IMG/VR virus record: IMGVR_UViG_3300032006_001851 | Length of the DNA stretch: 20,000 nucleotides | DNA from: an uncultured virus (IMG/VR IMGVR_UViG_3300032006_001851) | Taxonomy: Duplodnaviria > Heunggongvirae > Uroviricota > Caudoviricetes | Direction: 5' to 3' (one strand) | In this document: positions 4,336-19,087 of the stretch, one piece after another | Layout of the letters: the number at the start of each line of letters is the position of its first letter | Position numbering within the stretch: position 1 is the first letter of the stretch | Position numbers and translations under genes: made by a program | Notes under the pieces: model-generated | What the model saw: only the letters and a program-made list of their open reading frames with translations | The model's database searches: none | Told to the model about the DNA's origin: nothing

Positions 4336-4742
4336 GATACAATTTTTCTCCCATATCTGTCCCTGCCCTCCAGATCCTCAATTTCCTCCCAAACCTGACT
4401 CCATCCATCATCATCATCACTTCTAACTCTAGCAGCCTTGTCGTCAATATACATAACACCGGCAAGTTTGCCCATGTGTGCATGGTGATATTTAACGCCG
4501 TGTTTATCAAGCCACTCTATCCATTCTATATACCCTCTCTCGTATTGTCTGTGCATATTGCCCTTTTCCCTGTCGCCATACCTAGCTGTATATAGCACAA
4601 TTTCAAAACCCATGTCATAGAGTTTGTTTACTTGGTCGATTCCATGCTGTAGGGGGCCAGCATTTGCGTAGATGCCACCATGCTCCTTATCAGCAATAAC
4701 GCCATCACAATCCACGATTAATCTTTTTGAGCTATCTACCAT
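4332..4742 (-). CDS. Capless HAD-superfamily phosphatase (capsule-biosynthesis phosphatase-like)
   Basis: Motif I IVDCDGVI, motif II LYTAR, motif III/IV GK...YIDDKA; strong SD AAAGGAGGTGA upstream. Confidence 0.8.
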   Translation of the reverse strand: MVDSSKRLIVDCDGVIADKEHGGIYANAGPLQHGIDQVNKLYDMGFEIVLYTARYGDREKGNMHRQYERGYIEWIEWLDKHGVKYHHAHMGKLAGVMYIDDKAARVRSDDDDGWSQVWEEIEDLEGRDRYGRKIVS

Positions 4743-4805
4743 TTATCACCTCCTTTTATACTGCCCATTAATAATAACGAATATAAACGTAAAAAACACT
4801 AATAG

Positions 4806-4878
4806 TACCCTCGGCAGGACTCGAACCTGCAATCTACGGATTAGAAGTCCGTTGCATTATCCATTATGCTACGAGGGC
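4806..4878 (-). tRNA. tRNA-Arg(UCU), CCA not encoded
   Basis: GCCCTCG/CGAGGGT acceptor, anticodon arm ACGGA-CTTCTAA-TCCGT, T arm GCAGG-TTCGAGT-CCTGC. Confidence 0.95.
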
Positions 4879-5018
4879 AATAGATTAAATACTTTTAGAA
4901 AAATCAGAGTACCCGTAATCGCAGCAATAAGAGAGAACAAAGTTCTCATCATAGCCATTGTGTGATTGTGTCTGTCTAACCACCTCTCAAGGGGGCTTCT
5001 TTTTTTATTGTTTTCCAT
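4869..5018 (-). CDS. Small putative membrane protein (49 aa)
   Basis: MENNKKRSPLERWLDRHNHTMAMMRTLFSLIAAITGTLIFLKVFNLLPS*. It fills the gap between neighbours, its start overlaps the upstream gene end, and it has one hydrophobic segment. The stop lies 10 nt inside the tRNA-Arg 5' end. Confidence 0.55.
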   Translation of the reverse strand: MENNKKRSPLERWLDRHNHTMAMMRTLFSLIAAITGTLIFLKVFNLLPS

Positions 5019-5268
5019 TCTCATAAGCTTCTATAACGCGGCTAGTAGGTATTATTGTGTCATTAAAGCTATCAATAAGGAATGGTTCTCTGTTAGAAGG
5101 GAAGCCCTTCTGGTTAACAATAAAGGAATCTCCCAAGGTAACACCGCCCTCTCCAGTATCTAGGAAATGGTTGGAGGCTCTGCGTACTGCAAATACACAG
5201 GCGTAAAAAGGGGTGCTAGACGACACTACTTGTTGTAAGTTTCCAGTTTCCACATAGTATTTAGGCAT
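5005..5268 (-). CDS. Hypothetical protein (87 aa)
   Basis: TAATG overlap with the glmS stop; same strand as all neighbours. Confidence 0.65.
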   Translation of the reverse strand: MPKYYVETGNLQQVVSSSTPFYACVFAVRRASNHFLDTGEGGVTLGDSFIVNQKGFPSNREPFLIDSFNDTIIPTSRVIEAYENGKQ

Positions 5269-7058
5269 TAGACAGTTACACTTTTTGCTAGGTTACGAGG
5301 ACGATCAGGATTAAGCCCTTTTTTAACAGCTACATGATACGCAAGTAGCTGTAAAACTACGTTTGCTGCTAACGGCTCCATTGCTACTTCGCATGTTTCA
5401 TGTGTTCGGAAAGTCCAGTCTGCAACTTTTTTGACCCTGTCGTAATTTACAGGACTGACAACGGCGAACACTTCTCCTTTTCTAGATTTAACTTCTCTCA
5501 TATTGGAAATAATTGTGTCTATATCGAAAGAGCCAGTAACAGTAAATATACTTGGGGTCTTTTCATCCACTAAGGCAATAGGCCCGTGCTTCATTTCTGC
5601 TGCTGGCATACCTTCTGCATGGATGTAGCTCACTTCTTTTAACTTAAGAGCGCCCTCTAAGGCTATTGGATAGTCCCAATGTCTGCCTAGGAATAGAGCG
5701 TTGTCATACTGGGCTATCATCTTTGCAATAGTCGCCACGGCTTGTTCGCGGTCAAGTACATACTTGATTCCTTCGGCTAGGGCGTCTTGGTAGTCTAACA
5801 CTTTAAGTTCGTTTTCTTTAGATGACCAGTGCCACGCAAGCTCCCATAATGCATAACAAGTCAAGGTAAAGGTTTTTGTGGCGGCAACTCCTTGTTCAAG
5901 ATTTGCGCCAATATCAATCGTATTGAAGAAAGAATTGCCTAGCTGGGAGAAGGGTTGATTTGTGACTACAAATACTTCGTCTGATTTATCGTGGCAAGAT
6001 GCACGAACAATATCTTTAGTTTCCCCACTTTGAGTTATGTAGATTTTAGTTTCTTTAGGGTCTTTGAGCGTTACATTGATTGCTTCGCTTCCGTAAGTTA
6101 CCTTAGTGGGAATCTTTGCGAGTTCCTCAAACCAAACCTTCGCCCACATAGCTGCATAATAGCTACTACCGCAACCAATTAGGTGCAGTCTCTCTGGACG
6201 AAACGGAGGATGGTACATAGGATAATTACCCATATCCTCTATGAGTGAATATTGTTCTTTGATTTCATTGAGCATATGATGCTGCCCAAGAGGTTCACTG
6301 TTTATCGTATCTTGTGGTACGGATTCGGTAACTATAGAGTTGTTCGACAACTTTACACTGTGTACTATTCCCTCAGACGAGAGGCAGACTACGGAGTTCT
6401 TAATCCTCTTAGCCTCTTTTGCTTTCCCGGCGATAGCGTATGAATCGCTACTAACATATCCATTGTCAGTCACTAGCAGAGAGCTAGACCCTTTAGATGC
6501 ACAAAAGATAAGATCAGGTAGCTTTGCGAAAGACACTAAGAATGAGTTATCACCTTCCAGTTTATCAAGCACAGAATGAACTAGGTTAAGATGGTCCTCT
6601 GCTGTTATCGGAATATCTGATGAAGAAAGTTTAGTAGCATATCTATCTTTACTATCAACTTGAGCAAAATGAAAAACGGTTTTCAACTGTAGCTGTTGCA
6701 CTATAAATTGCGTATCTAGTAGCTCCGATGGAGAATTTTCCACCGTCCCGTTATGAACAACAAACACTCTCTGAGCCTTGTCATGTTGGGGATGGGCATT
6801 TTCCTTGGAGACTTCTCCGTGAGTAGCCCATCTCGTGTGACCTATTCCTGAGATAAAATCCCCATTGAGAGTATGAACTATACCTGCGAGTCTAGGATTT
6901 TGTGAAACAATCCCGATGTCTTTATAGAGAAAATGAGAGTTGTTCCTAAACGCACAAAAGCCATAGCTATCATACCCGCGATACTCTAGCCTCTTCATTC
7001 CTTCTACTACAGTGTTGGCCACATCGCTGCCACCCACATATCCTATTATGCCACACAT
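5268..7058 (-). CDS. glmS: Glutamine--fructose-6-phosphate aminotransferase (isomerizing)
   Basis: MCGIIG (Cys1), LEYRGYDS, GHTRWATHG, NAHP, VVHNG, CGSS, TQSGET, VAATKTF, ALEGALKLKEVSYIHAEG, KHGPIAL and PRNLAKSVTV. Confidence 0.96.
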   Translation of the reverse strand: MCGIIGYVGGSDVANTVVEGMKRLEYRGYDSYGFCAFRNNSHFLYKDIGIVSQNPRLAGIVHTLNGDFISGIGHTRWATHGEVSKENAHPQHDKAQRVFVVHNGTVENSPSELLDTQFIVQQLQLKTVFHFAQVDSKDRYATKLSSSDIPITAEDHLNLVHSVLDKLEGDNSFLVSFAKLPDLIFCASKGSSSLLVTDNGYVSSDSYAIAGKAKEAKRIKNSVVCLSSEGIVHSVKLSNNSIVTESVPQDTINSEPLGQHHMLNEIKEQYSLIEDMGNYPMYHPPFRPERLHLIGCGSSYYAAMWAKVWFEELAKIPTKVTYGSEAINVTLKDPKETKIYITQSGETKDIVRASCHDKSDEVFVVTNQPFSQLGNSFFNTIDIGANLEQGVAATKTFTLTCYALWELAWHWSSKENELKVLDYQDALAEGIKYVLDREQAVATIAKMIAQYDNALFLGRHWDYPIALEGALKLKEVSYIHAEGMPAAEMKHGPIALVDEKTPSIFTVTGSFDIDTIISNMREVKSRKGEVFAVVSPVNYDRVKKVADWTFRTHETCEVAMEPLAANVVLQLLAYHVAVKKGLNPDRPRNLAKSVTV

Positions 7059-7471
7059 AATATATCTCCGTTTTTATCTGACCACCAAATATCATCCACA
7101 CCAATAGCAGACAATACAGTTTGGCAATCCCTGCAAGGCTTTGCGTTTCTTAGAACACAACCTCTTGAGACTCTTAAGGAGACTAAGCTAAACGAATTAT
7201 CTATTTGTTCCCTGCCCCAAACTTTTTGCAGGGCATTTATCTCTGCATGAATATAGGGATATTTAATACGATGTTTTGTTTTGAACCTTTTTGCAAAGTA
7301 CAGTGCTTTTGCGCATGGTTTATCGGCACAGTTTTGACCAATAGAAATAAGCCTGTTCTTTTTCCATAAAAAGGCAAAATGAAAAGCCTTGTGACTTGTG
7401 GCATTTTCATATCGTTGAGGAAAAAGCTGACAGGCTATCTGAACAGACTTATCAATGTTCTTCTGGTTCAT
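7046..7471 (-). CDS. Zn-dependent cytidine/deoxycytidylate deaminase-fold protein
   Basis: HAEINAL and KPCRDC zinc motifs; SIGQN upstream. Confidence 0.8.
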   Translation of the reverse strand: MNQKNIDKSVQIACQLFPQRYENATSHKAFHFAFLWKKNRLISIGQNCADKPCAKALYFAKRFKTKHRIKYPYIHAEINALQKVWGREQIDNSFSLVSLRVSRGCVLRNAKPCRDCQTVLSAIGVDDIWWSDKNGDILCVA

Positions 7472-7646
7472 TCTTCTCTGGGTTCCTATAGGGAGTCAAC
7501 CTCTCTCTGGCCTCCCACTGTATTCTTTCAATTTCTTTTTCTATCCTCTTGGATTCCCTTAATTCATTTCTTCTCTTTACTACCCTAGCCTTGGCAACAG
7601 TCTCTCTATTCTTTTTCTTCTGCATCTTCTTGCGTTGTTTTCCCAT
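7452..7646 (-). CDS. Small highly basic hypothetical protein (64 aa)
   Basis: K/R-rich; TGATG overlap with the upstream gene. Confidence 0.6.
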   Translation of the reverse strand: MGKQRKKMQKKKNRETVAKARVVKRRNELRESKRIEKEIERIQWEARERLTPYRNPEKNEPEEH

Positions 7647-8131
7647 CAGCCCGAACCTCCTAACTCTAATTCAAATGGATCGCTTGGATCATTATGCTGT
7701 TTTAATTCTCTGTCCTTATGGTCATAATCCCTAGCGTGAGTCACTAATTCACTACTGCTCTGGATTTTATTACCACCAATATTCCACTTAAGACCTATGC
7801 CATATCGCTTACAAAACTTTACCTCTGGAACATTGTCAGAGATTCTATCTCCACCATTAGCGAAGTAGCATGGGCGTAATTTATCCAAAGCATCACACAC
7901 AGTGCCATCGGAGTCGTCCACCTCAATAACATGATGAACATCACTAAACGCTTCTAGGATCGACTTTCTTTCCTCAAAAGGCATGAACACATACCCTTTC
8001 TTTTGCTCCAACCAATCGTCGCTATTTAAAATAACGATAACATCACCGTGCTGTGAGGCATCTTTAATCATATTAAGATGCCCGATATGAACCGGATCAA
8101 ATCCACCACTGATAGCTATAGTTTTATTCAT
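7646..8131 (-). CDS. HIGH-motif cytidylyl/adenylyltransferase (TagD/RfaE/RibL-like family)
   Basis: SGGFDPVHIGHL, LNSDDWL..KKG, ERKSIL, FANGGDR and KIQSSS. Confidence 0.88.
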   Translation of the reverse strand: MNKTIAISGGFDPVHIGHLNMIKDASQHGDVIVILNSDDWLEQKKGYVFMPFEERKSILEAFSDVHHVIEVDDSDGTVCDALDKLRPCYFANGGDRISDNVPEVKFCKRYGIGLKWNIGGNKIQSSSELVTHARDYDHKDRELKQHNDPSDPFELELGGSG

Positions 8132-8146
8132 TTATACCACCTAATT

Positions 8147-8401
8147 TTAAAAGTCAAAGAAAGCAATACATTGTTCGCCTTCTTCTGTAAACCTCATGCT
8201 TGCAGCCTTATTCATAAACTTTAGTAGTTCGTCAGGCTCCAAGCCAAAGACAATCTCTTTGTCTTCGACATATCTTTTTTCAAAACCTGTAACTTGGATA
8301 GGACCAGCTTTGTTGTGGGATGCGCTTGCCAGCCAGCCGACATTGGATACATCCCTCTGAAAAAAAACGGTTACGTCATTCTTGAATTTAATATCTGGCA
8401 T
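8147..8401 (-). CDS. Hypothetical protein (84 aa, start revised to MPDIKF)
   Basis: The track start at 8461 lies inside the tmRNA 3' end. ATG at 8401 is preceded by AAGGA. Confidence 0.65.
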   Translation of the reverse strand: MPDIKFKNDVTVFFQRDVSNVGWLASASHNKAGPIQVTGFEKRYVEDKEIVFGLEPDELLKFMNKAASMRFTEEGEQCIAFFDF

Positions 8402-8418
8402 TTTTAATTCCTTTAAAA

Positions 8419-8759
8419 TGGAGGCGGCGGGAATCGAACCCGCGTCCTGTATAGTTTCCATAACAGCTTCTACATGGTTAGTTTATTGTATTCGCACAAC
8501 AAACAAGGCTAGCCTGATAAGTTCGGTTGGCATGCTCAGACGGCCCATATCCAACCTAGTGTGCGTTATTGAGGAATCGCACCAAAACCTTGTTTGGCTT
8601 GATTGGTTAATAAGGCTCAAGCCAGCCCCAAGCTACACTAGGCAGCTAACGCGAATTGCTTTTCGGCAATTACTTTTTTGGTCAGCTTTTATAGTGGCCA
8701 ACTGACCAACCACTCCATGCAACTATTATCTCCACTACCAGTCGAAACCAATCGCCCCC
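8419..8759 (-). ncRNA. ssrA: tmRNA, tag peptide (A)AEKQFALAA*
   Basis: 5' GGGGGCGATTGGTTTCGAC; 3' GACGCGGGTTCGATTCCCGCCGCCTCCA; acceptor stem with G3-U pair and A discriminator; pk1 (AGTGGTT/GGCCACT and GGTCAG/CTGACC); tag ORF at 8638-8667 GCC GAA AAG CAA TTC GCG TTA GCT GCC TAG. Confidence 0.95.
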
Positions 8760-8764
8760 TTGTA

Positions 8765-9793
8765 TTAAGTACTTGTAATAAACGGCGGGAGTCCCGCCCC
8801 TAGAGCTAACGCTACATTTATCTCTGCGGCACTATCAACTATATCTTCGTCAAGAATCTTACCGGCTTCTTCAAGCATAGGTGACATTAACCTATCTTTA
8901 ATTGCACTAGACGATTCTCTAACCTTTCCCGGCACAGAGGATCTGCCAGCCTTTTTACCTGATACGGTATCATAGCTATAAAATCCTCTATACGACTTTC
9001 TTCCGAAGTCTTTATTTTTGTATAGCTGATGGCATACGCTATTATCAGAAACGGTTATGTGATCATATGCTTTTGCTATACTTTGAGACCCGTGGTAGAT
9101 AACATCAAGACCAACGAGATCACATAGTTCTGCTGGACCCATAGGCCAGCCGTGATTTTTCATGACCGTATCTATGTGAGAATAATCGTGATCTTCTGAG
9201 ACCATCTTATCAAACTCAATGAGATAAGGCATTAACATTCTATTAACTACAAAACCACTGCAATCATTGCAAATTAGCGGCACTTTTCCTATAGCTAGAG
9301 ATGTCTTGCATAGAATGGCTACGGTTTCTTCTGAGGTAGATGGACTTGAAACTACTTCAACAAGAGGCATCCTAGATACAGGATTAAAAAAGTGCATCCC
9401 TCCGAAGTTACTGTTGGACGAAATGTCTTCTACTTTAAATGTTGAAGTGTTTGTTGCTACAAACTTGTCATCCCCACACTTGGAAATAAGGTCTCTCTTT
9501 AGAGAGATGACCTCTGGAACCGCTTCTATTACGAGATCGGCAGACTCTACTGCTTCCGATAGATCGGTTGTTCCTTTGATTAATGGAATATCTTCAGCTA
9601 ATTTAAATTGACCGACATCTATGTCGTACAGGTTTACATTAATAGCTGCCTTCTCAGCCAAGGCGGAAGCGATACCCATACCCATAGCTCCTGCTCCAAG
9701 AACAGCAACAGTTTTTGGGATATCAGTATTAGCAGAAAATTTTTCCGCCTTAGCTATAAGGCCCGAATAAAGATCACTCTTGTTCTCTGACAT
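8765..9793 (-). CDS. 3-hydroxyacyl-CoA dehydrogenase (C-terminal half of a FadB/FadJ-type enzyme)
   Basis: VAVLGAGAMG, EAVPE, ATNTST, GMHFFNPVSRMPLVE (catalytic His/Glu), GFVVNR and GWPMGP..L.D.VGLDV. Ends with a partial second HAD C-domain (...LGAGLPPF). Confidence 0.92.
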   Translation of the reverse strand: MSENKSDLYSGLIAKAEKFSANTDIPKTVAVLGAGAMGMGIASALAEKAAINVNLYDIDVGQFKLAEDIPLIKGTTDLSEAVESADLVIEAVPEVISLKRDLISKCGDDKFVATNTSTFKVEDISSNSNFGGMHFFNPVSRMPLVEVVSSPSTSEETVAILCKTSLAIGKVPLICNDCSGFVVNRMLMPYLIEFDKMVSEDHDYSHIDTVMKNHGWPMGPAELCDLVGLDVIYHGSQSIAKAYDHITVSDNSVCHQLYKNKDFGRKSYRGFYSYDTVSGKKAGRSSVPGKVRESSSAIKDRLMSPMLEEAGKILDEDIVDSAAEINVALALGAGLPPFITST

Positions 9794-9854
9794 TTTAAAT
9801 CCTATAAATATTGATCGTGCTGTTTCTACTGAGACATCTTTCCAACAAATTAAG

Positions 9855-9926
9855 TACCCCCGGTGAGAGTCGAACTCACGTTACCGCTTTATAAGAACGG
9901 CGTTCTAACCGTTGAACTACGGGGGC
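9855..9926 (-). tRNA. tRNA-Ile(UAU), CCA not encoded
   Basis: GCCCCCG/CGGGGGT acceptor plus A73, D arm GTTC/GAAC, anticodon arm CCGTT-CTTATAA-AGCGG, T arm GTGAG-TTCGACT-CTCAC. Confidence 0.92.
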
Positions 9927-9932
9927 ATTTTA

Positions 9933-10130
9933 TTATGCCCTGTCTATGCGACCTATTATATCCCGTAATTCATCCGTCGTCATTATTACACTCTGTTTGC
10001 TTAACACTTTAGTTTCGTCAAACCATGTCTGCACAAACGAAACTTCTTTATTTCCCTCGGAAATGAATGCTTTAGTCTCCCAATGAAAACTCCCCATGCC
10101 TTCATCACATTTATATATTAATCGTCCCAT
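9933..10130 (-). CDS. Hypothetical protein (65 aa)
   Basis: Overlaps the aldolase 3' end and fills the gap before tRNA-Ile. Confidence 0.6.
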   Translation of the reverse strand: MGRLIYKCDEGMGSFHWETKAFISEGNKEVSFVQTWFDETKVLSKQSVIMTTDELRDIIGRIDRA

Positions 10131-11070
10131 GAAGTTCGCCTTGTGTTGCTAGGCTGCATTGATTGGCTCGTTCCAACAAAGCGTTCTTGGCATCTTGCTT
10201 TTTTGCGTTTGCCCAAAGGCTTAAAGCATTCTTCTGCAACTCTCTACCAAATGAGAATGAAACATACCAAGGCAGATTAGATTCTTTATTTATAGCATTA
10301 AGATTTTCTACAGCAACCCCGTCATCTTGGCCCCCACTGAGGAAAGCGATCATGGGAACTGCTGATGGAATTGTACGCTTGAATGATCTGGTAGTTAACT
10401 CCGCTGTAATACTCGGATCGTTTTCTACGTCAGATTCGTATCCATTTAAAATCATGTTGGGTTTAAGTATAATATACTCCAACTCAACTCTCTCGTAGAA
10501 CATGGCATCAAATACATGGTGCAATACTCTTTCGGTTACGATAGCGGCATCCTTTATATAATGAAAGCCGTCCATTATTATCTCTGGTTCAACAATGGGG
10601 ACGATACCTTCAAGCTGACACTTTTTAGCATATCTAGCAAGGTTCCAAGCGTTAGCGAGAATACAAGAACCACTATCACGAACATTAATAACAGCACGCC
10701 ACTTAGCGAATTCGGCCCCCAAGTCTTTATAGACTCTGAGTCTTTCTGTAAGTCCATCTAATCCCTCCGTTAGTTTGCAGCATTCACCATAAGGTTTTGC
10801 ACCCTTATCAACCTTGATGCCAAGAGGGATCTTATCAAGCACTGGGGCAATGGTGTCCGAATTTCTAATAGTTTCGTCATACAGTATGATGCCACTAATA
10901 TAGTCTTCCAATCCATCGGCGCTAAATAGTGTGTGTCTATATGAGTGTCTGGTTCCTTCTGTGGAATCAATACCTACAGAATCAAATCTTTTCTTGATCG
11001 TGGGGGTACTCTCATCCGCTGCGAGAATTCCCTTGCCACGAACACATAACCTATCAATAGTATCTTGCAT
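10111..11070 (-). CDS. Class I fructose-bisphosphate aldolase (glycolytic, eukaryote-like family)
   Basis: GKGILAADES, ILYDET, GIKVDKG, TEGLDGL, FAKWRAV, VPIVEPE, LKPNM (Schiff-base Lys), FLSGGQ and SFSFGRELQ. Confidence 0.95.
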   Translation of the reverse strand: MQDTIDRLCVRGKGILAADESTPTIKKRFDSVGIDSTEGTRHSYRHTLFSADGLEDYISGIILYDETIRNSDTIAPVLDKIPLGIKVDKGAKPYGECCKLTEGLDGLTERLRVYKDLGAEFAKWRAVINVRDSGSCILANAWNLARYAKKCQLEGIVPIVEPEIIMDGFHYIKDAAIVTERVLHHVFDAMFYERVELEYIILKPNMILNGYESDVENDPSITAELTTRSFKRTIPSAVPMIAFLSGGQDDGVAVENLNAINKESNLPWYVSFSFGRELQKNALSLWANAKKQDAKNALLERANQCSLATQGELHGTINI

Positions 11071-12158
11071 TAGTAATGAACCCTATTCGTCCTGATGAAA
11101 GTTGCACACTTAGGAAAGTCTTTTAAAGACCTAGCACCAACGTAGGCACATGCGCTCCTAATACCTCCCATAATTTCTTGAACGACCTCTGAGACCGGAC
11201 CCTTGTAGTCAACAGACATAGACTTGCCTTCAGATGTTCTATAGGCTCCAACTCCACCGTTATGAGCCTTCATAGCATCCTCACTCGACATACCATAAAA
11301 CTTTAATGACTTTTTAACATTCTTTTCTCCGACATCATAACCACCAGAATCATTCTTAGTGATCTCTCGCTGATAGTTCCAGTCTCCTTCACACTCCTCT
11401 GTCCCGGCGAACATGCTACCCAGCATAACAAAATCGGCCCCGGCGGCAAATGCCTTAACAACATCTCCCGGTGTCCTGCACCCACCATCTGCACAGATAT
11501 GACCGTTAAGACCATGAGCCGCATCCGCACACTCTATAATAGCTGACAACTGAGGATAACCGCAACCTGTTACCATTCTAGTTGTGCATACACTACCCGG
11601 TCCTATTCCTATTTTAACGATATCGGCCCCTCCACTGATAAGTAATTCACTAACCATCTCTGGTGTACATACATTGCCAGCCATTATAATGGCGTCGGGA
11701 AACATATCTCGTATACGCTTAACATGGTCAACGAAAACCTTCTGATAGCCGTTTGCTACATCAATGCATATCTTATGTATACCTAAACCACACTCATCAA
11801 TGTGAGGAAGTTCATAGTCTACATCTAATAGTTTTTCAACGTCTTCTTCTTTTATGCCTATAGTGTAGAACGTGTTCAGTCTGGGCTGAGAACTAAAGTA
11901 GCCCACTAAGTCATCTACTTTGTAGTATTTATGCAAACAGGTCTGCATGCAATGCTTGTGCAGACTGTCAGACATTTCCATTGTTCCTACGGTGTCCATG
12001 TTTGCGGCAACAATAGGCACAACTATTTCTTCTGCTGGCGCATGAAGATATCGGTAGTGTTTTTCAACTTCAACCCCAGACCGACTATTGAGAGTGGATC
12101 TTTTCGGTCTGATAAGAACGTCGTCGAAATCTAGCTTAACTCCATCCTCGAATTTCAT
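11070..12158 (-). CDS. guaC: GMP reductase
   Basis: KLDFDDVLIRPKRSTLNSR, AANMDTVG, CIDVANGY, GIGPGSVCTTR, GYPQLSA, ADGGC, FYGMSS, YRTSEGK and GGIRSACAYVGA. Confidence 0.95.
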   Translation of the reverse strand: MKFEDGVKLDFDDVLIRPKRSTLNSRSGVEVEKHYRYLHAPAEEIVVPIVAANMDTVGTMEMSDSLHKHCMQTCLHKYYKVDDLVGYFSSQPRLNTFYTIGIKEEDVEKLLDVDYELPHIDECGLGIHKICIDVANGYQKVFVDHVKRIRDMFPDAIIMAGNVCTPEMVSELLISGGADIVKIGIGPGSVCTTRMVTGCGYPQLSAIIECADAAHGLNGHICADGGCRTPGDVVKAFAAGADFVMLGSMFAGTEECEGDWNYQREITKNDSGGYDVGEKNVKKSLKFYGMSSEDAMKAHNGGVGAYRTSEGKSMSVDYKGPVSEVVQEIMGGIRSACAYVGARSLKDFPKCATFIRTNRVHY

Positions 12159-12187
12159 ATCAGCATTCCTGAACGAAGTATTTAAAA

Positions 12188-12270
12188 GTGCGGAGACAGG
12201 ACTTGAACCTGTATTTCCTGTTGTGACGGACAGAATACAACAGACGATCTTCCAGTTGATCTACTCCGCT
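12188..12270 (-). ncRNA. tRNA-like cloverleaf with enlarged non-canonical anticodon arm (no assignable anticodon)
   Basis: AGCGGAG/CTCCGCA acceptor (1:72 mismatch), D arm GATC-AACTGGAA-GATC, T arm ACAGG-TTCAAGT-CCTGT. The anticodon arm is an 8-bp stem TCTGTTGT/ACAACAGG with a 12-nt loop ATTCTGTCCGTC; 83 nt total. Confidence 0.75.
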
Positions 12271-12271
12271 G

Positions 12272-12406
12272 GCGATTAACCAAGCTATAGGGGGTTCGCA
12301 TTCTCACAAAATGCGATATAGAATGGCTAACCGCAATAGCCGGTGTCCTGTAACCAAATTCGGAGTATACACCTATACCCTACAGGACTACCCATAACCG
12401 GCTATT
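12272..12406 (-). ncRNA. Two abutting long bulged hairpins; putative structured RNA contiguous with the tRNA-like element
   Basis: Hairpin 1 (12335-12406): AATAGCCGGT/ACCGGCTATT, GTCCTGTA/TACAGGAC, GGGTATA/TATACTC. Hairpin 2 (12272-12334): GCGGTTAGCCA/TGGTTAATCGC, CTATA/TATAG, TCGCATT/AATGCGA. G-U pairs work only on the minus strand. Confidence 0.6.
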
Positions 12407-12723
12407 TAAACATCAAGTACCTGACGAATCTTACCGCGAAGAACCTGATAGTTTCCACGATTAGACTTAGCTTGCGTGGCGTTGGAAACATTAGTCGTTA
12501 GCGTGCTGGTCAGACCGAGCTTGCTAGCGGCTTGCTTCTTACCCTTACAGGTAGAAGCATAGGTTCCCTTGCCAGTTGAGCGAGAAACAGCAGTAATAGG
12601 GTCATACTTCTTGCCCCTAGTCTTACCATTCTTTGCGGTCCCAACGATGCTCTTACCTTCCAGACTCCAAGAATAGGCACTTGTTGTCTGCGACAATGCT
12701 ACCAAAAATTGTGTCTCTGTCAT
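12406..12723 (-). CDS. Basic Lys/Thr/Ser-rich hypothetical protein (105 aa)
   Basis: SD AAGGAG upstream and TAATG coupling; many K/R and few acidic residues. Confidence 0.75.
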   Translation of the reverse strand: MTETQFLVALSQTTSAYSWSLEGKSIVGTAKNGKTRGKKYDPITAVSRSTGKGTYASTCKGKKQAASKLGLTSTLTTNVSNATQAKSNRGNYQVLRGKIRQVLDV

Positions 12724-12863
12724 TACTCACTCTCCTTCTCGTTAAACTCTTCCTCACATTCTGCAACGTGTTTACGCAACGCTGCTAATTGTTGTTCAAC
12801 ATCAACAATTTTCTGTTTCACTTGGTCAATATAGGCTTGAGCCATTTCGTCTTTACTTGGCAT
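12723..12863 (-). CDS. Small acidic coiled-coil-like protein (46 aa)
   Basis: SD AAAGGAG, then MPSKDEMAQAYIDQVKQKIVDVEQQLAALRKHVAECEEEFNEKESE*. The stop overlaps the next ATG (TAATG). Below the ORF-track cutoff. Confidence 0.7.
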   Translation of the reverse strand: MPSKDEMAQAYIDQVKQKIVDVEQQLAALRKHVAECEEEFNEKESE

Positions 12864-12907
12864 ATCGTTCTCCTTTATAGTCGGGCCGAATATATAATAA
12901 GATTAAC

Positions 12908-13207
12908 TTAATACTTTTTCACAATTCTAGGGCTAGAAGACATACGGTTGTCTTTAGAAATTTCTACGAAGAAAGAATCATCTATACTGAAGGTTGGCAC
13001 AACACCCTCACCAGTGCCACGACCTATACACCAAACATTAACCCGCCACTTATTAGCCCAAAGATGATGAGCGTCGATCTTAAAGAAGTTAGATGGCTTG
13101 CCCAGCTTCTTCATAACCTTAGCTTTAATAGCTTCCTCCGTAGCGGAATGGTCTTTGGTTCCCTCAACGTGCTGGTGCATCGGCTGTTTAGGCTGTTGTT
13201 TTTTCAT
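12908..13207 (-). CDS. Hypothetical protein (99 aa)
   Basis: ORF in the same-strand run; LWANKWRVNVW segment; no family recognised with confidence. Confidence 0.7.
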   Translation of the reverse strand: MKKQQPKQPMHQHVEGTKDHSATEEAIKAKVMKKLGKPSNFFKIDAHHLWANKWRVNVWCIGRGTGEGVVPTFSIDDSFFVEISKDNRMSSSPRIVKKY

Positions 13208-13210
13208 AGC

Positions 13211-13438
13211 TCAATCCACTTTGTACTTACTTAAAAAATCTTGCATGTGGGCTGTGCTTGCAGCAGTAACGATGGCCGCAAACTGCCTCACTCCAATGTC
13301 TATTGAACTGTAGGCTTTTATCTCGGAGCCTTTGAATAATCCTTGTACCAGATTCAAGGTCTGGGTTTCGAGATTATAATAAGCCCTTGTTTCTACATCG
13401 AGACTTTCCGAGCTTTCAGTATCATCATAAATAATCAT
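13211..13438 (-). CDS. Hypothetical protein (75 aa)
   Basis: ATGA overlap with the upstream small ORF. Confidence 0.65.
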   Translation of the reverse strand: MIIYDDTESSESLDVETRAYYNLETQTLNLVQGLFKGSEIKAYSSIDIGVRQFAAIVTAASTAHMQDFLSKYKVD

Positions 13439-13608
13439 TGCCTATTCCAAAGAAACCACCCTAGTCCTAAACCCCCGGCAAACACGATACCGTTGTATAA
13501 TGTCACAGTTAGCATGTCTAACAGGTCATATTTTCTCATTAGGCTTTTCTTAGAAGAAGGAGTAGGAAGTGTAATGCCCTTTGACGTTTGACTTTTTGAG
13601 TCAGTCAT
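13435..13608 (-). CDS. Small putative membrane protein (57 aa)
   Basis: SD GAGGT; MTDSKSQTSKGITLPTPSSKKSLMRKYDLLDMLTVTLYNGIVFAGGLGLGWFLWNRQ*; C-terminal hydrophobic segment; ATGA coupling to the next gene. Confidence 0.65.
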   Translation of the reverse strand: MTDSKSQTSKGITLPTPSSKKSLMRKYDLLDMLTVTLYNGIVFAGGLGLGWFLWNRQ

Positions 13609-13628
13609 TTTTATTACCTCTCTAGTTA

Positions 13629-13657
13629 ATTATAGGTGTCTATCTGAAATCGGTCAA
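13629..13657 (-). promoter_or_regulatory. Near-consensus sigma70 promoter
   Basis: TTGACC (13657-13652), 17-nt spacer, TATAAT (13634-13629), about 20 nt upstream of the ATG at 13608. Confidence 0.7.
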
Positions 13658-14230
13658 GCAGTCATTTTGAAAATATTCTTCTTCGTCAACCCCCGTGACG
13701 CTTTTGAGCCTCTCTACGCCTCTCCTTATGCCTTCGCTAACGGCTTGTTTGCTGATGTCACATTGTCTGGCTATTTCGACGCAGTTGTAACCTTCAACAT
13801 AGTATTTCTTGAGATACTTTTTCATGCTCTCAGACAGACAACTATGGTTAACGAGCTTGTTTACCTTATAGCTTGTGTCAGTCTCTTCGGGTTCTCTTTG
13901 AACTATAGTATCTCCGAATTCTGTGTAGTGACCCTCGTCGTCTTCTACACGATAGTTAAGAGACAGTGTTTCCTTGGCCTTGGCATCACGCTTCTTGAGC
14001 TTGCCAGCCCAAGATACCAAAGCCCATCGGCCACTGGATATACGATAGGTTGATCTCTTAGCTCCTTTGTCGGGATCATACTTCCAATCCGCTCTCATCA
14101 TCCAGTAAGAGACAAAGGCTACACACTCATCATCTTTCTGCCATTCCCACTTACCCCATTTTCCTATAACTCTCTTTGCCTCATGCCAGTAGTCCTTAAG
14201 GGATTTACCTTCCATCATGAATACCTCCAA
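13640..14230 (-). CDS. Divergent sigma-70-family RNA polymerase sigma factor
   Basis: Region-2-like ADWKYDPDKGAKRSTY..SGRWA (cf. FDPxKGxKFSTYA) and region-4 HTH LSESMKKYLKKYYVEGYNCVEIARQCDISKQAVSEGIRRGVERLK. Confidence 0.8.
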   Translation of the reverse strand: MEVFMMEGKSLKDYWHEAKRVIGKWGKWEWQKDDECVAFVSYWMMRADWKYDPDKGAKRSTYRISSGRWALVSWAGKLKKRDAKAKETLSLNYRVEDDEGHYTEFGDTIVQREPEETDTSYKVNKLVNHSCLSESMKKYLKKYYVEGYNCVEIARQCDISKQAVSEGIRRGVERLKSVTGVDEEEYFQNDCLTDFR

Positions 14231-14494
14231 TTAGTTTTTTATTACATCAATTTCAACACAGGACATCTTCGCTCTTATCTTCTGCATAGCAACAATTGCA
14301 TCTTTTCTGGTATTGAACACCCAAGTATGAGTAACTATTCCAGAAGTATTTGTTTCTGATAATGGGGAATGTTCTGCTTGTACCAGAACTAGCCCAGAAT
14401 CATTGTGGGGTTTACCAACAATCTCCTCAAGTTCTTTATTTGCGACTCCAATTGGGTGGTCATATAAATTATACTTTACGATCAGGCGAAACAT
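14231..14494 (-). CDS. Hypothetical protein (87 aa)
   Basis: Same-strand ORF abutting the sigma gene. Confidence 0.6.
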   Translation of the reverse strand: MFRLIVKYNLYDHPIGVANKELEEIVGKPHNDSGLVLVQAEHSPLSETNTSGIVTHTWVFNTRKDAIVAMQKIRAKMSCVEIDVIKN

Positions 14495-14750
14495 TCTTTC
14501 TCCATCCTAACTTCCAAAGAATACAGGAAAGTTCGGTGGCGGTTTGTTCTACCCATTCCTCATCTTTATACCAGTCAGCAGCGTGTAATAATTCATGTAT
14601 TGTTACATCTAATTCTTCTACGCCTTCGAGTTCCTTGGATATGCGAATTTTCTTATCAGTAGTGTCAGGAGAATCGCACTTGCCAAGATAATCCCCTCTT
14701 AATTTTTTGAAGATTAGCTTCCAGTATTTTCCGCCAACCTTTATTCTCAT
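14469..14750 (-). CDS. Small HEXXH zincin-like putative metallopeptidase (93 aa)
   Basis: LGKCD...IRIS...VTIHELLHA...EEWVE minimal zincin pattern; ATGA overlap with the acyl-CoA dehydrogenase stop. Confidence 0.6.
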   Translation of the reverse strand: MRIKVGGKYWKLIFKKLRGDYLGKCDSPDTTDKKIRISKELEGVEELDVTIHELLHAADWYKDEEWVEQTATELSCILWKLGWRKNVSPDRKV

Positions 14751-16600
14751 GTTCTTTCGTACTTCATTAGAATAGACTCGTATCCACGCTCCCCCTTCTG
14801 GTTTGCAATAGCTTCACCAAGAGACACGCTCTTTCTTATCTGTGCATCGGTTGGATGTCTACCTGTTATTTTGTTTCTAAGATTATGACAAGACACATCA
14901 GCTATCAGTGCTTGCATTGGTTCTGCTTGAGCATAAGCGTAACAAACTGTAACCATAATAGTTATAAGATTCTGAATCTTTCTAGAGAGTATAGACATCC
15001 TGCACTGTTTGTCTGCTAATCCCAGTTGGTACTTGCGCATCAAAGAACTAATTTCCCAAGCAGATTTCTGCAATCCCTTAATGGCGAAGTTTGCATGGCT
15101 TACTAAGTCAGCATTAAAACCTATAGGTCTTATGCCACCCTTCGGAATAAGTTTCTCTTTAGCCATCCATTTCACATAAGGCATGAAAGTTTCAACATTG
15201 TTAATTACATCAAGGATGCTTGGGCTTCTCTTGCCCAGATTAGCCATCAGCTTTCCAACAGGCTCAAAGAAGGTCTGACCATGCTCTTTAACCAACCCCT
15301 TAAAGAAAGCCATGTTCAACATATCGCCTTCGCCCTCATAAATGAGAGGAGCAAGTATGTCGTGGATATTATCGCCAACAATATGCCCCGATAAAAATGA
15401 CCTTCCGCCGTGAGTTTTCATGCACAAATCAATTGCAGCTTCTTTCTGACACTCTGATCCAAATGTCTTCGCTATTATACACTCTAGCTCTCCTCTGTAT
15501 CCCTTGTCAATCAATCCTGAACACCAAGCTACAAGAGCATCAGATGAAAGAATGTATCCTGCAAGTCTAGCAATTCGTTCCTGAACCAACTCTCTGTTTT
15601 TGATTGACTGTCCATATGTTGACCTATAGGATGACCAAGGAAGCATCGAGTCCAGCATGGTCTTCATGCAACCAGATGCGTTAGCACATAAAGATATTCT
15701 TCCTAAGTTCAATCCGTGATATGCTACAGTCAGACCATCACCTCTGTCTAACTGGATAAGATTTTCTTTTGGTACTCTATGATTTGTAAATGTAAGTGAG
15801 TTGTTGTTAAGCCTAGTAAGCGCATGTATATCATAGTGTCCTATCTTAAATGTGTCAGTATCCGTCTCGGGAATTTCTACAAGAAGGACTTGAGGCTTAT
15901 TATCTATTTTACATACTACAGAAACAAGACCACCATAATGCACGTTTGTGATAAACAACTTAGTGCCGTTTAGAACGTAGTCGTCTCTGTCCATTATAGC
16001 ATATGTTTTCAGTGCTGTCAAGTCCGATCCGGCACAAGGTTCGGTTAGAGCAAAGGCAGATAGAAAAGTTCCATCAGCCAGTCCCGGTAAATACTTTTTC
16101 TTTTGATAGTCATTTCCAAATGTTCTAACAGGATCAACGGAACCTATACATCCATGAATGGAACACATTCCTGCCACGCTTGGTTCAATAGTGGCCATCT
16201 TTGTTAGGAATGAAGAAAACTCCGAGAAGGATACTGACGATTTATCTGGGAGTGGTACTAGCAGTCCGTAGTATCCGGCCTTAGACAAGGCGGTGATAAG
16301 TTCCTCGCTTAGTTTTCTTCCGTCGTACAGTTTATCTAGTTCTTTAAAGTGTTTGACAATTTCAAAACAGTTGTCCAGCATAGCCGAATTAGGTCTATGG
16401 AAGTCAAACTCAAAAAATTCTCTGGTTGGGAACTCCCCGCTCCATACAGCTTTGTGTGCTGGACTATTCTTGGTTTGATATTTATCGTCAAACAGTTCCT
16501 CTATTTGGTCATCTGCCGTATCTACTTTTCCTATGCTCGTAGACTCCTCTGCGGTTTTGCCGCTTAACTCCATAGCAGTTTCAGCAAAAGATTTACCCAT
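14747..16600 (-). CDS. Acyl-CoA dehydrogenase (FadE-like, with C-terminal extension)
   Basis: FGNDYQKKKYLP, SAFALTEPCAGSD, LNGTKLFITN, LNLGRISL, IAKTFGSE, THGGRSF and IYEGEG (catalytic Glu). Confidence 0.93.
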   Translation of the reverse strand: MGKSFAETAMELSGKTAEESTSIGKVDTADDQIEELFDDKYQTKNSPAHKAVWSGEFPTREFFEFDFHRPNSAMLDNCFEIVKHFKELDKLYDGRKLSEELITALSKAGYYGLLVPLPDKSSVSFSEFSSFLTKMATIEPSVAGMCSIHGCIGSVDPVRTFGNDYQKKKYLPGLADGTFLSAFALTEPCAGSDLTALKTYAIMDRDDYVLNGTKLFITNVHYGGLVSVVCKIDNKPQVLLVEIPETDTDTFKIGHYDIHALTRLNNNSLTFTNHRVPKENLIQLDRGDGLTVAYHGLNLGRISLCANASGCMKTMLDSMLPWSSYRSTYGQSIKNRELVQERIARLAGYILSSDALVAWCSGLIDKGYRGELECIIAKTFGSECQKEAAIDLCMKTHGGRSFLSGHIVGDNIHDILAPLIYEGEGDMLNMAFFKGLVKEHGQTFFEPVGKLMANLGKRSPSILDVINNVETFMPYVKWMAKEKLIPKGGIRPIGFNADLVSHANFAIKGLQKSAWEISSLMRKYQLGLADKQCRMSILSRKIQNLITIMVTVCYAYAQAEPMQALIADVSCHNLRNKITGRHPTDAQIRKSVSLGEAIANQKGERGYESILMKYERT

Positions 16601-16775
16601 TATTTAACTCCCTCACTTTCTTACCTGTGTGGTCTACAACAATAGGGCCACATCCCTCACATAAAACCTTAGCGGCATCGCCTCTTAAGTATTGTTCTTC
16701 TGAAACTATGTAGGCTAGGTCACGAAAATCCTCTCCAAAAAACTTCTCGCTACACTCCTTACAGAAATCAGCCAT
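16593..16775 (-). CDS. Small Cys4 putative zinc-binding protein (60 aa)
   Basis: MADFCKEC...VLCEGCG; SD AGGAG upstream. Confidence 0.65.
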   Translation of the reverse strand: MADFCKECSEKFFGEDFRDLAYIVSEEQYLRGDAAKVLCEGCGPIVVDHTGKKVRELNNG

Positions 16776-16777
16776 AA

Positions 16778-17398
16778 CTAATCTCTCCTAGCTGTGAATA
16801 CGAATACATCCATGTAATTAAGTTCAATACCTTCAACATCTTTTGTAATACGATTTCCATCATGCCACACTTCTCTGTCATTGAATACAACAACATCTCC
16901 CGGCTTAAGGAGTATAGTCCAAAATGGGTGTGAATCTTTATCATCAAATACTAGCAACTCTCCCCCACACACATTTGATCTGTTTATGGAGAATATACCC
17001 ACGGCATCGAAACCGTCTTGGTGCGGTCCTTCTGGAGATAATTCAGCAAACTGCATACCTTCTGGGACAGTCACTCTCATCTGATGGACTTCTATGTCTT
17101 CCAAATCTATTTCACCAGCACGGCGAAATAGACTTAGCATTTTTTCGAAGCATTGACTATTTAATACTGAATCTTCAATCGGTTCAAACTTTCTTAGCAC
17201 ATCACCCTGATACTTATTATAATCAGACGATTGCGTAAATGTCGATTCTCCTACAGGCACATTAAGGTGGTCAATAATAGAATAACGTCTAAGCCTGAAT
17301 TCACCGTCAGCATGATCTGTATTTGGCAGATCGTAAAACGATAACTGAACCTGCTTGATGTCTCCATAGTCTAACTTGTCAAGTATAATTTTGTGCAT
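16778..17398 (-). CDS. 2OG-Fe(II) dioxygenase family protein (2OG-Fe_Oxy_2-like)
   Basis: RLRRYS, FTQSSDYN...G...RKFEPI, VHQMR, SPEGPHQDGFD (HxD), WHDG (distal His) and MDVFVFT. Confidence 0.82.
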   Translation of the reverse strand: MHKIILDKLDYGDIKQVQLSFYDLPNTDHADGEFRLRRYSIIDHLNVPVGESTFTQSSDYNKYQGDVLRKFEPIEDSVLNSQCFEKMLSLFRRAGEIDLEDIEVHQMRVTVPEGMQFAELSPEGPHQDGFDAVGIFSINRSNVCGGELLVFDDKDSHPFWTILLKPGDVVVFNDREVWHDGNRITKDVEGIELNYMDVFVFTARRD

Positions 17399-17401
17399 TG
17401 T

Positions 17402-17608
17402 TCACTCCGTAGCGTTGTCGTAATAATAGCACACTAATTCCCAGCCTCTAAGATCCCTGAACTCCTCCACCATCCTAGCCATCCCAACAACCATGCGAGA
17501 AGTGATCCAGTTTTTCCTTAGCTCAAGTGGAACACTAAGAAAAGAGGTGATTCCACTCACCTGCCTCTGATACATCAGATGGACTATAACCACATCTTTT
17601 CTAACCAT
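17402..17608 (-). CDS. Hypothetical protein (68 aa)
   Basis: Same-strand ORF overlapping the upstream small ORF. Confidence 0.55.
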   Translation of the reverse strand: MVRKDVVIVHLMYQRQVSGITSFLSVPLELRKNWITSRMVVGMARMVEEFRDLRGWELVCYYYDNATE

Positions 17609-17747
17609 CTACCCCATCGCTTGAAGGAATATCTATTCCTAATTCTTCTGCCGTTATTAAGTCTAGTTTTCTTCTTAGGTCTTTCTTTTCTTCTTCACTC
17701 AGTCTAATGTATCTGTACCAACATTCCCTAAGTGTCTGACTGCTCAT
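17601..17747 (-). CDS. Hypothetical protein (48 aa)
   Basis: MSSQTLRECWYRYIRLSEEEKKDLRRKLDLITAEELGIDIPSSDGVDG*; exactly fills the gap and overlaps both neighbours. Confidence 0.5.
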   Translation of the reverse strand: MSSQTLRECWYRYIRLSEEEKKDLRRKLDLITAEELGIDIPSSDGVDG

Positions 17748-18024
17748 AATTCATCTCGTCTATTTCAACCTGTTTCTCTAGAGACTTATACATGAGATTA
17801 CATGATATTTTGGCTATTGCTATACATTCCTCCACTCGTTCAATATCATCTTCGCCCATGTACTCCGCAATAGCTTCAATAAATGAGTATAAAACATGAC
17901 CCAGTTCTATGTTATCGGATTCCATTGAGGATACGAATTCCTCTAAGCCGAATGTTTCATTCTTGGCATACACCTCCTGAATGATGCTTTCTATAGTTGC
18001 AGATTTGACGTATGGTAATTTCAA
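17728..18024 (-). CDS. Acidic hypothetical protein (~98 aa; TTG start proposed)
   Basis: GGAG upstream of a TTG that overlaps the hydratase TGA (TTGA). The track start at 18066 lies inside the hydratase gene. Confidence 0.6.
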   Translation of the reverse strand: MKLPYVKSATIESIIQEVYAKNETFGLEEFVSSMESDNIELGHVLYSFIEAIAEYMGEDDIERVEECIAIAKISCNLMYKSLEKQVEIDEMNYEQSDT

Positions 18025-18989
18025 CCTCTTTCTCCATTTAGAAACTTTTGCACCAGTTCTCTGCATTCATCACTTCTGACCAGTGGGATAAAAGCCTTGC
18101 GTTCTAGTTCTAAAGATTCATCCCTGTTCATGGTCCTAGTTTCCTTCAGTACCTCTAGAGCTTTGTAGGGGGATGGATACCTATTAGGGTCACCAAACAT
18201 CTTCTTCTGTTTTCTACGAATTGTATACTCGACGATAGGGTAAGTAATACTAGCCCTCATCTTGCCAAGATTAGTTGGGCCACGTTTCTTGTTTCTAATA
18301 GCAGCCCATGTCATCATATCACTATCGCTCAGTTCGTCGATAATTCTACGGGCTTCCTTAAACGCTTGACTATACTCTACTATACCATCGACCAGACCAA
18401 TTTTCAAAGACTCTTTCTGCTTTACATTTCTTCCGGTGCAGATAAGCTCGATAGCCTTGGTTGGACTAATAATACGAGGAAGTCTGGTGGTTCCTCCCCA
18501 CGATGGAAGGATACCTAGTTTGACTTCTGGCAATGCCAGCTTAGTAAGTTGTAGCGTAGTATATTCTGGATCTTTTGGAACAGGGTCTTTAACTAAAATC
18601 CTACTAGTACAGGCTAGAGCTAATTCCAGCCCACCCCCCATCGTCGTCCCCTTCATAATCGAGCAGGTAGGTATAGGTAAGTCTTCAATTCTATTGAGTA
18701 CATCCTGCCCCTCTGTTAAGAAGCCATCTATTGTTTCGTCATCTGCATCATGTGCTGTGACAAATATTTTAATATTCGCCCCGACTATAAATGTTGACTT
18801 ATTACTGCTGAATATGATCCCCTTATAATTTCCCTTCTCTGCTACACCAATAAGAACCTCTAGCTCCTGAAGCGTTTGCGTATCAAGAAAATTATATGGC
18901 CTTTTCATATGGTCAAATACGATATTATAGATTCCGTCGTGACTATATGCCTTAAAGTTCTCTAGCGTGTTGCCGTTAAGTAGCATCAT
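18021..18989 (-). CDS. Enoyl-CoA hydratase (N-terminal half of a FadB/FadJ-type enzyme)
   Basis: FIVGANI, MGGGLELALAC and LPEVKLGILPSWGGTTRLPR (both catalytic Glu), plus the FadB linker YPSPYKALEVLK...ESLELERKAFIPLVRSDECRELVQKFLN. Confidence 0.92.
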   Translation of the reverse strand: MMLLNGNTLENFKAYSHDGIYNIVFDHMKRPYNFLDTQTLQELEVLIGVAEKGNYKGIIFSSNKSTFIVGANIKIFVTAHDADDETIDGFLTEGQDVLNRIEDLPIPTCSIMKGTTMGGGLELALACTSRILVKDPVPKDPEYTTLQLTKLALPEVKLGILPSWGGTTRLPRIISPTKAIELICTGRNVKQKESLKIGLVDGIVEYSQAFKEARRIIDELSDSDMMTWAAIRNKKRGPTNLGKMRASITYPIVEYTIRRKQKKMFGDPNRYPSPYKALEVLKETRTMNRDESLELERKAFIPLVRSDECRELVQKFLNGERG

Positions 18990-18991
18990 GT

Positions 18992-19087
18992 TTAATCTCT
19001 CTCCTCAAGCCATCCAAAATAATCTGCCAAAAAGGCAAATGTCCAAAGTCCTGCTACACCACCTATGATTAATACCCACTCATTCAT
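18992..19087 (-). CDS. Tiny single-TM peptide (31 aa)
   Basis: MNEWVLIIGGVAGLWTFAFLADYFGWLEERD*; AAGGA upstream; fills the gap and overlaps the upstream ORF. Confidence 0.5.
   Translation of the reverse strand: MNEWVLIIGGVAGLWTFAFLADYFGWLEERD

Follow-up and report, generated by a model that had tools for sequence, protein, structure and literature searches.

The question arises what an 83-nt gene that combines the acceptor stem, D arm and T arm of a tRNA with an overlong anticodon arm does between two protein genes of a phage, and in particular whether it can decode at all. The gene, hereafter the element, lies in a stretch of 20,000 nt (the window) that belongs to a metagenome contig of 176,883 bases, is present in marine plankton DNA runs and comes from a large marine phage of a bacterium. 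From our point of view, the element is best read as a predicted non-decoding tRNA mimic that derives from an initiator tRNA and would be processed like a tRNA, a reading to which we assign a probability of about 0.45.

Results

The locus and its stable RNA genes

All plausible genes of the window are located on the (-) strand, and many of them are auxiliary metabolic genes with matches to phage families. Such genes are dense in the run at 1-19000 (-), which holds genes for acyl-CoA dehydrogenase, enoyl-CoA hydratase, 3-hydroxyacyl-CoA dehydrogenase, class-I fructose-bisphosphate aldolase, GMP reductase, a GlmS-like amidotransferase, aldehyde dehydrogenase and a class-III aminotransferase, and further for a DDAH-like protein, a SET-domain protein and a 2OG-Fe dioxygenase. 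The same strand carries the stable RNA genes tRNA-Arg(UCU), tRNA-Ile(UAU) and a tmRNA (Table 1). None of these encodes CCA, so that the phage's tRNA-Arg, tRNA-Ile and tmRNA must also receive it. The context of the element is like that of these genes, as it lies on the same strand, encodes no CCA and shares with the tmRNA the sequence TTTTAAA directly 3' of the gene. In relatives of the phage, the tmRNA tags read AEPQFALAA, AEKQYALAA and ADEKSTAEKQFALAA.

A further short motif, AGTAYTTAA, is located 5-6 nt upstream of tRNA-Arg and tmRNA (4885-4893 and 8765-8773, both (-)) and also occurs on the opposite strand 2 nt past the 3' end of the element (12177-12185, (+)). These three matches in the window compare with 0.66 expected, and three were reached in 4 of 200 shuffles; the motif may represent a promoter or processing signal for stable RNA genes.

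Table 1. Position and description of the element, its arms and the features around it.
Feature	Position	Strand	Description
tRNA-shaped gene (element)	12188..12270	(-)	83 nt; 5' end 12270, discriminator C at 12188; ARAGORN, Rfam, cloverleaf as minimum-energy fold
D arm	12246..12261	(-)	GAUC-AACUGGAA-GAUC; 4-bp stem, 8-nt loop with GG; fold and Rfam alignment
Remodelled anticodon arm	12217..12244	(-)	8-bp stem 12244-12237/12224-12217; 12-nt loop AUUCUGUCCGUC at 12236-12225; fold and Rfam alignment
T arm	12196..12212	(-)	ACAGG-UUCAAGU-CCUGU; 5-bp stem; fold and Rfam alignment
Trailer	12159..12187	(-)	29 nt, UUUUAAAUACUUCGUUCAGGAAUGCUGAU; from the 3' end of the element to the GMP reductase ATG
GMP reductase / IMPDH-family gene (3' neighbour)	11070..12158	(-)	PF00478 7.6e-67; phrog_9582; named GMP reductase in phage XacN1
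Upstream hairpin 2	12272..12334	(-)	Abuts the 5' end of the element; missing from L109, the closest relative (alignment)
Upstream hairpin 1	12335..12406	(-)	Begins at the stop codon of the 105-aa ORF; 10-nt outer arms perfectly complementary
105-aa ORF (5' neighbour)	12406..12723	(-)	No known family; query for finding related phages
tmRNA	8416-8759	(-)	Full, 134 bits; tag AEKQFALAA

An intact tRNA body

Read 5' to 3' on the (-) strand, the element begins with AGCGGAG UA GAUC AACUGGAA GAUC G UCUGUUGU AUUCUGUCCGUC and continues with ACAACAGG AAAU ACAGG UUCAAGU CCUGU CUCCGCA C. Its minimum-energy fold is a cloverleaf (-25.7 kcal/mol, z -2.44; 3 of 200 shuffles were as stable), in which all 23 pairs are standard, one of them G-U, if the mismatch at 1x72 is set aside. 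The acceptor stem consists of six pairs plus this A1xA72 mismatch and is followed by U8 A9; the D arm contains A11:U24, A14, A15, G18 G19 and A21, with G26 behind it; the variable loop is AAAU (4 nt) and the discriminator is C73. The core positions U8, A14, A15/U48, G18 G19, A21, G26/A44, U54 U55 C56, A58 and G53:C61, whose roles in tRNA tertiary structure are well established, are all present.

A local search of 301 bases placed the element in the tRNA family RF00005 with 41.2 bits against a cut-off of 29 (E 1.2e-7), and ARAGORN called a gene at exactly the same coordinates. In the RF00005 alignment the anticodon loop takes up 17 bases where the model has 6, i.e. 11 extra, and the remainder is aligned. 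An earlier note, made from the letters of this DNA, had described the A1:A72 mismatch, the GG of the D loop, the T loop TTCAAGT and a fully paired anticodon arm of 8 bp with a 12-nt loop that is 11 nt too long, and all of this is confirmed by the fold and the Rfam alignment. A scan of the whole window at the Rfam gathering threshold did not list the element, presumably owing to speed filters, and the search of 12100-12400 with E values up to 10 returned no family except tRNA and, in particular, no intron family.

An assembly slip can be dismissed for the sequence of the element. Each sampled 31-mer of 11500-13000 recurs in 17 DNA runs that were assembled separately; as these runs are flagged as potential sources of the assembly, they do not represent independent samples. 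One run contig of 8,713 nt is identical to the window over 1.5 kb. RNA was considered in three RNA-library runs that contain small shares of the stretch. A single contig from these libraries touches the element (174 nt, 12249-12424, depth 2.8); it extends from the end of the 105-aa ORF through both hairpins into the element, of which it covers the first 22 nt, and thereby crosses 12270/12271. Relative to the window it shows 1-nt deletions at 12302, 12304 and 12308, in or beside the loop of hairpin 2. It shows that a second study contains a strain nearly identical to this one, and it could represent carried-over DNA.

An anticodon arm without a decoding register

The arm of a decoding tRNA, namely a 5-bp stem and a 7-nt loop with U33 and a purine at 37, is absent from the element. 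Its place is taken by the strands UCUGUUGU and ACAACAGG, which form eight uninterrupted pairs without a bulge; the 28-nt sequence of the arm occurs once in the window, and CAU is found nowhere in it. If the canonical register is imposed (5-bp stem 27-31/50-54), the loop starts with U32 G33 and is thus without U33, so that an excision of 11 nt cannot create the U33 turn at any site, and removal of 11 nt at the canonical 37/38 site leads to the loop UGUAUUA, again with G33, so that a normal loop is not restored.

Two decoding readings are nevertheless offered by ARAGORN. By default it reports tRNA-Tyr(GUA) with the stem GUCUG/CUGUC, of which three of five positions are paired and two are U.U mismatches; this reading leaves out the single base that separates the D stem from the anticodon stem and makes a false variable arm of the leftover bases. 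In intron mode it reports tRNA-Asp(GUC), for which 9 nt are taken out at 33/34 and the stem is shifted by one base; two bases are then left after the D stem, and the loop becomes GU-GUC-AC with U33, A37 and C38.

Three statements of the earlier note bear on these registers. That excision of 11 nt at 37/38 gives no U33 loop holds true, given the G33 in register, and the weak GTA (Tyr) reading that had been noticed in a shifted register has the same anticodon as the Tyr call of ARAGORN, which needs a distorted arm. The suggestion of an atypical mini-intron fares worse, as there is no bulge-helix-bulge (two 3-nt bulges and a 4-bp helix) in the fold, no U33 after canonical excision, and a conflict between the Asp assignment and C73. 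With only 11 nt, the insert is also far from the some hundreds of bases of a self-splicing group I intron. Families of splicing endonucleases or RNA ligases were not found among the genes of the 20-kb window, and no splice joint was seen in the RNA-library contigs, which barely cover the gene.

The pentamer UCUGU occurs twice in the element, at positions 27-31 and 37-41. An origin of the insert by tandem duplication is not supported, as the two 10-mers that start with UCUGU agree in those five bases only.

Probable descent from an initiator tRNA

Bacterial initiator tRNAs are defined by G2:C71, C3:G70, G4:C69 and A11:U24, and their 1x72 mismatch is usually C1xA72. The element possesses all four pairs as well as an unpaired 1x72. 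It lacks CAU, A73 (the position being C73) and the three G:C pairs at 29-31/39-41, where U29:A, G30:C and U31:A are found instead.

In viral contigs, a scan for the acceptor bases 2-7/66-71 of the element in combination with U8 A9 G10 and a standard T loop yielded a pattern-selected set of at least 113 loci. Among the matches listed, 103 of 113 were called tRNA-Met(CAU) by ARAGORN, the remaining ten being two Pyl-CUA, two Leu-CAG, two Asn, one Arg, one Leu-UAA and two uncalled genes; 1x72 was unpaired in 73 of these 113 listed matches, A11 was present in 63 and C73 in none. Several of these viral tRNAs start with AGCGGAG and end with CUCCGCAA, and consequently have A1xA72 as in the element. 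A full scan for C73 returned four loci only, with two distinct sequences.

Since the acceptor stem is common to Met-CAU tRNAs and is accompanied by G2:C71, C3:G70, G4:C69 and A11:U24, the ancestor of the element was probably an initiator-type tRNA-Met. The likeness to initiator tRNAs, which had been remarked on before for the A1:A72 mismatch, is strengthened by the shares of Met-CAU genes and of 1x72 mismatches among the matches listed. It should be added that A11:U24 is not exclusive to initiators, as it also occurs in phage tRNAs for Gln, His, Asn, Pro and Val, and that a U1->A change in a U1:A72 tRNA would give the same 1x72 mismatch, which weakens the case for initiator ancestry.

Absence from related phages

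Related loci were sought via both neighbouring genes. In 80 viral GMP-reductase loci (best identity 74%), the element was absent according to our own model R1, which was run on all 80, and it was found neither by ARAGORN in the 19 of the 80 loci that were scanned nor by Rfam in the 8 of 80. In five whole records from this set, R1 gave no match, but as it also missed a known tRNA, this outcome carries no information on the element. A search with the 105-aa ORF led to five closer phage relatives (88 to 64% identity), and within 2.5 kb of this ORF the element was found in none of the five related contigs. In the closest of them, L109, the two genes that flank the element are direct neighbours as well; the spacer between them has about half the length and closes with a stem and a T-run, and both hairpin 2 and the element are missing. 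The related viral records reach 161 kb, and in three of them, one rated complete, a tRNA search of the whole record detected only tRNA-Asp(GUC), tRNA-Ile(UAU), tRNA-Arg(UCU) and tmRNA, and not the element.

The element, together with hairpin 2, is thus, as judged by sequence comparison, a lineage-specific insertion or replacement. The case that close relatives carry a normal tRNA here, which would have spoken against anything but a unique mutation, was not seen, as L109 has no tRNA at this place; its absence there agrees with an element acquired recently as well as with a relic that is short-lived. The tRNA-Asp(GUC) of the relatives was rejected as an ancestor, given its acceptor strand GGGGACG, its G73 and no similarity by alignment. 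This tRNA-Asp is itself unusual in two relatives (L118:1501-1574 and L119:1500-1574), where the anticodon loop UUGUCUA has U37 in place of the usual purine.

Beyond the relatives, an exact 26-mer of the element had no match in viral contigs, an exact 28-mer matched the source contig alone among metagenome contigs, and blastn of the element against GenBank phages gave chance-level fragments only. The three scans of viral contigs that were able to match the element, namely with this 26-mer, with the acceptor pattern described above and with a pattern of D arm and T loop, returned nothing similar among the matches listed. The last of these patterns found 26 ordinary tRNAs of many isotypes; the D arm is therefore not diagnostic. 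Since no homologue was found, there is neither conservation nor covariation that would show selection.

Look-alikes in other contigs

When long variants of tRNA genes in viral contigs were sorted into loop classes according to how we read their folds, a normal 7-nt anticodon loop was missing from 7 of 36 loci, and from 16 of 64 under a relaxed acceptor pattern; in the other long variants the 7-nt loop is kept, and it is the variable, D or T region that is enlarged. One of the loci without a normal loop, L305 (on a contig shared with L241 and L267), is 83 nt long, has C73 and carries the loop CUCAUA + 10 nt + A, from which removal of the 10-nt insert gives the universal initiator loop. L304, L307, L320 and L336 (hereafter the L304 family) are 85 nt long and represent two sequence variants; they combine C1xA72 and C73 with a loop of 13-15 nt in which a small hairpin, but no CAU, is found. 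One record of this type is classed as a provirus in which the look-alike is the sole tRNA match, and its gene may belong to the host. In L294 (on a contig shared with L235), a tetraloop caps a stem of 11 bp, and the gene belongs to an array of 48 tRNAs on a 313.6-kb record; L338 has an anticodon stem of 8 bp with an 8-nt loop. In bacterial and archaeal genomes, a long-gap pattern mainly found archaeal initiator tRNAs with introns of 12-16 nt and, in a bacterial bin, one contig on which a 7-bp stem closes a loop of 23 nt. In none of the look-alikes is the sequence of the anticodon arm similar to that of the element. Genes of this kind thus recur, which does not imply that they are conserved.

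Other departures from the standard cloverleaf were seen in viral contigs. In L302, L327 and L329 (matches at 101-181), the anticodon arm is replaced by the conserved core GCAAGGACGCUUCCCA while the flanks differ, and these tRNA-shaped genes may form a small family. L259, L261 and L265 (matches at 301-391) are tRNA-shaped genes of 94 nt, with an initiator-type acceptor, a hairpin inserted in the D loop and no CAU in the anticodon loop. The loci L085:45-218, L088:203-288 and L099:366-445 contain viral Thr, Lys, Pro and Cys tRNAs of 80-86 nt, whose extra bases ARAGORN puts into variable arms, which is unusual for class-I isotypes.

Discussion

How the element could work

The features by which processing enzymes recognise a tRNA are all intact, namely the helix of acceptor stem and T arm, the D/T elbow and the tertiary positions of the core. 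The element would therefore be expected to be released from a polycistronic (-) transcript by RNase P and RNase Z, after which CCA would be added. The 8-bp helix with its 12-nt loop would have replaced the ancestral anticodon arm. By the identity rules of tRNAs, the product should neither be charged with Met nor be used in translation, since it offers no CAU to MetRS and no loop with U33, an anticodon and a purine at 37 to the ribosome. It might then be kept as a stable tRNA mimic, for which two candidate roles can be imagined, namely that (i) it marks and processes the junction between the upstream 105-aa ORF and the GMP reductase message; or (ii) it binds factors that recognise initiator tRNA at its acceptor end. 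As L109 has a stem and a T-run at the same gene junction, the element sits where a transcript boundary lies. This place, the flawless stems and core and the extra pairing of the arm make up the case for a function, although three extra stacked pairs would arise by chance in about 1 of 20 cases by our estimate; the case against a function is the complete lack of conservation. The earlier proposal of a non-decoding mimic is hence supported in part: no register gives a normal loop, stems, elbow and core are intact and the initiator origin has gained strength, and the element, known from one lineage, remains a lead.

Alternative explanations

The main rival, in our view less probable than the mimic, is that the element is a young pseudogene without a function, i.e. 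an acquired initiator-type tRNA that was disabled by an insertion into, or replacement of, its anticodon loop together with changes at positions 1 and 73, and that has not yet been deleted. Such a decay would be in line with the occurrence in one lineage and the absence from five relatives including a complete genome, with the missing anticodon, the A1xA72 mismatch and the unusual C73, and with similar oddities within large phage tRNA arrays; the repeated UCUGU at 27-31 and 37-41 could further hint at slippage or duplication. However, all stems are perfectly paired and the tertiary positions are kept, although the loop is much more than one event away from an initiator loop, and a simple deletion cannot restore CUCAUAA as it can in L305. 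Useless DNA is quickly removed from phage genomes, which we also count against a pseudogene, as we do the fact that the same sequence is fixed in the 17 run assemblies, possible sources as these are.

The element could also represent one domain of a structured RNA of ~220 nt (12188-12406) that includes the two upstream hairpins, which we regard as unlikely. The 135 nt in question (12272-12406) abut the element without a gap and fold far more stably than shuffled sequence (z -5.69 for 12271-12420, 0 of 200 shuffles as stable), the RNA-library contig spans the 12270/12271 junction, and hairpin 2 and the element are jointly missing from L109. Against this, hairpins behind a stop codon are ordinary terminators or stabilisers, Rfam recognises the tRNA family alone in 12100-12400, and the RNA-library contig is thin and may be DNA.

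Very unlikely, from our point of view, is a decoding tRNA whose insert is removed or tolerated, either as tRNA-Asp(GUC) minus 9 nt at 33/34 or as tRNA-Tyr(GUA). The Tyr version suffers from its 3-of-5 stem, and the element has neither A73 nor G1:C72 nor a real long arm. For the Asp version, the loop with U33, A37 and C38 is attractive, relatives of the phage do carry a tRNA-Asp(GUC), and G10 and G2:C71 suit Asp identity; yet the tRNA-Asp of the relatives differs in the acceptor stem, has G73 and is dissimilar to the element, and the reading requires two bases between the D and anticodon stems. An arm without bulges cannot contain a bulge-helix-bulge, no enzyme for such introns is known from bacteria, neither a splicing endonuclease nor an RNA ligase family was found in the window, and the RNA contigs examined, with their poor cover, hold no joint. 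Finally, a chance match or an assembly artefact, in favour of which one could quote the whole-window Rfam scan that did not list the element, is hardly conceivable in view of the score in the local search and the identical sequence in separate run assemblies, even if these are possible sources.

Wider meaning

Returning to the non-decoding mimic, one could speculate that large phages repeatedly evolve anticodon-less copies of initiator-type tRNAs as processed, CCA-tailed decoys or sinks. Such copies would be marked by the lack of a 1x72 pair, by C73 and by an anticodon hairpin of increased length; they would have been invented twice independently, once in the element and once in the L304 family, and the targets might be tRNA-directed defence nucleases, end-modifying toxins, formyltransferase or IF2. 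On the sequences at hand we hold this general scenario to be improbable. It would nonetheless matter, as the current view, in which the tRNA genes of phages counteract tRNA-cutting defences, has so far considered decoding tRNAs only: a processed tRNA copy without an anticodon would, if true, be a different tool, a mimic and not a spare part. There is also a practical side. Look-alikes are scattered over viral contigs and are labelled by gene finders with arbitrary anticodons, such as the Tyr of ARAGORN in the present case; these labels inflate tRNA counts and can mislead studies of codon usage or code reassignment.

Comparison with known systems

Searches of the full-text literature did not find any account of lengthened anticodon stems in phage tRNA genes. 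The stable RNAs of T4 (species 1 and 2) and other tRNA-like substrates of RNase P are comparable in being phage-encoded, tRNA-like and non-decoding, and have no sequence relation to the element. The intron-bearing archaeal initiator tRNAs (L273, L280, L281, L285) resemble it in the start AGCGGAG UAG and in 12-16 extra bases in the anticodon loop. In contrast to the element, however, they keep CUCAUAA after removal of the intron and have A1:U72 and A73, and the phage of the element carries a tmRNA, a bacterial feature.

Altered-loop phage tRNAs are reportedly tied to the escape from host anticodon nucleases in Azam et al. 2024. The same role has been proposed for phage tRNAs with altered anticodon loops by van den Berg et al. 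2023 (PMC10264068), and the sections of that paper drawn on here add that phages generally avoid encoding tRNA-fMet where tRNA-fMet is the nuclease target; the terms decoy and pseudo do not occur in these sections. As far as they describe these tRNAs, the element is like them in being a phage-encoded tRNA-type gene that departs from the norm in its anticodon arm, whereas they keep a 7-nt loop and decode and the element is without a usable anticodon.

With the initiator tRNA-fMet of bacteria and phages, the element shares G2:C71, C3:G70, G4:C69, an unpaired 1x72, A11:U24 and, in the case of phages, a closely similar T arm; it differs in the missing CAU, the missing three G:C pairs of the anticodon stem, in C73 instead of A73 and in an arm that is 11 nt too long. 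The viral look-alikes (L304 family, L305, L294, L338) have the same build, in that the anticodon arm is lengthened or replaced and the acceptor, D and T arms are left intact; the L304 family, despite an unrelated arm sequence, also agrees with the element in the 1x72 mismatch, C73 and the lack of CAU.
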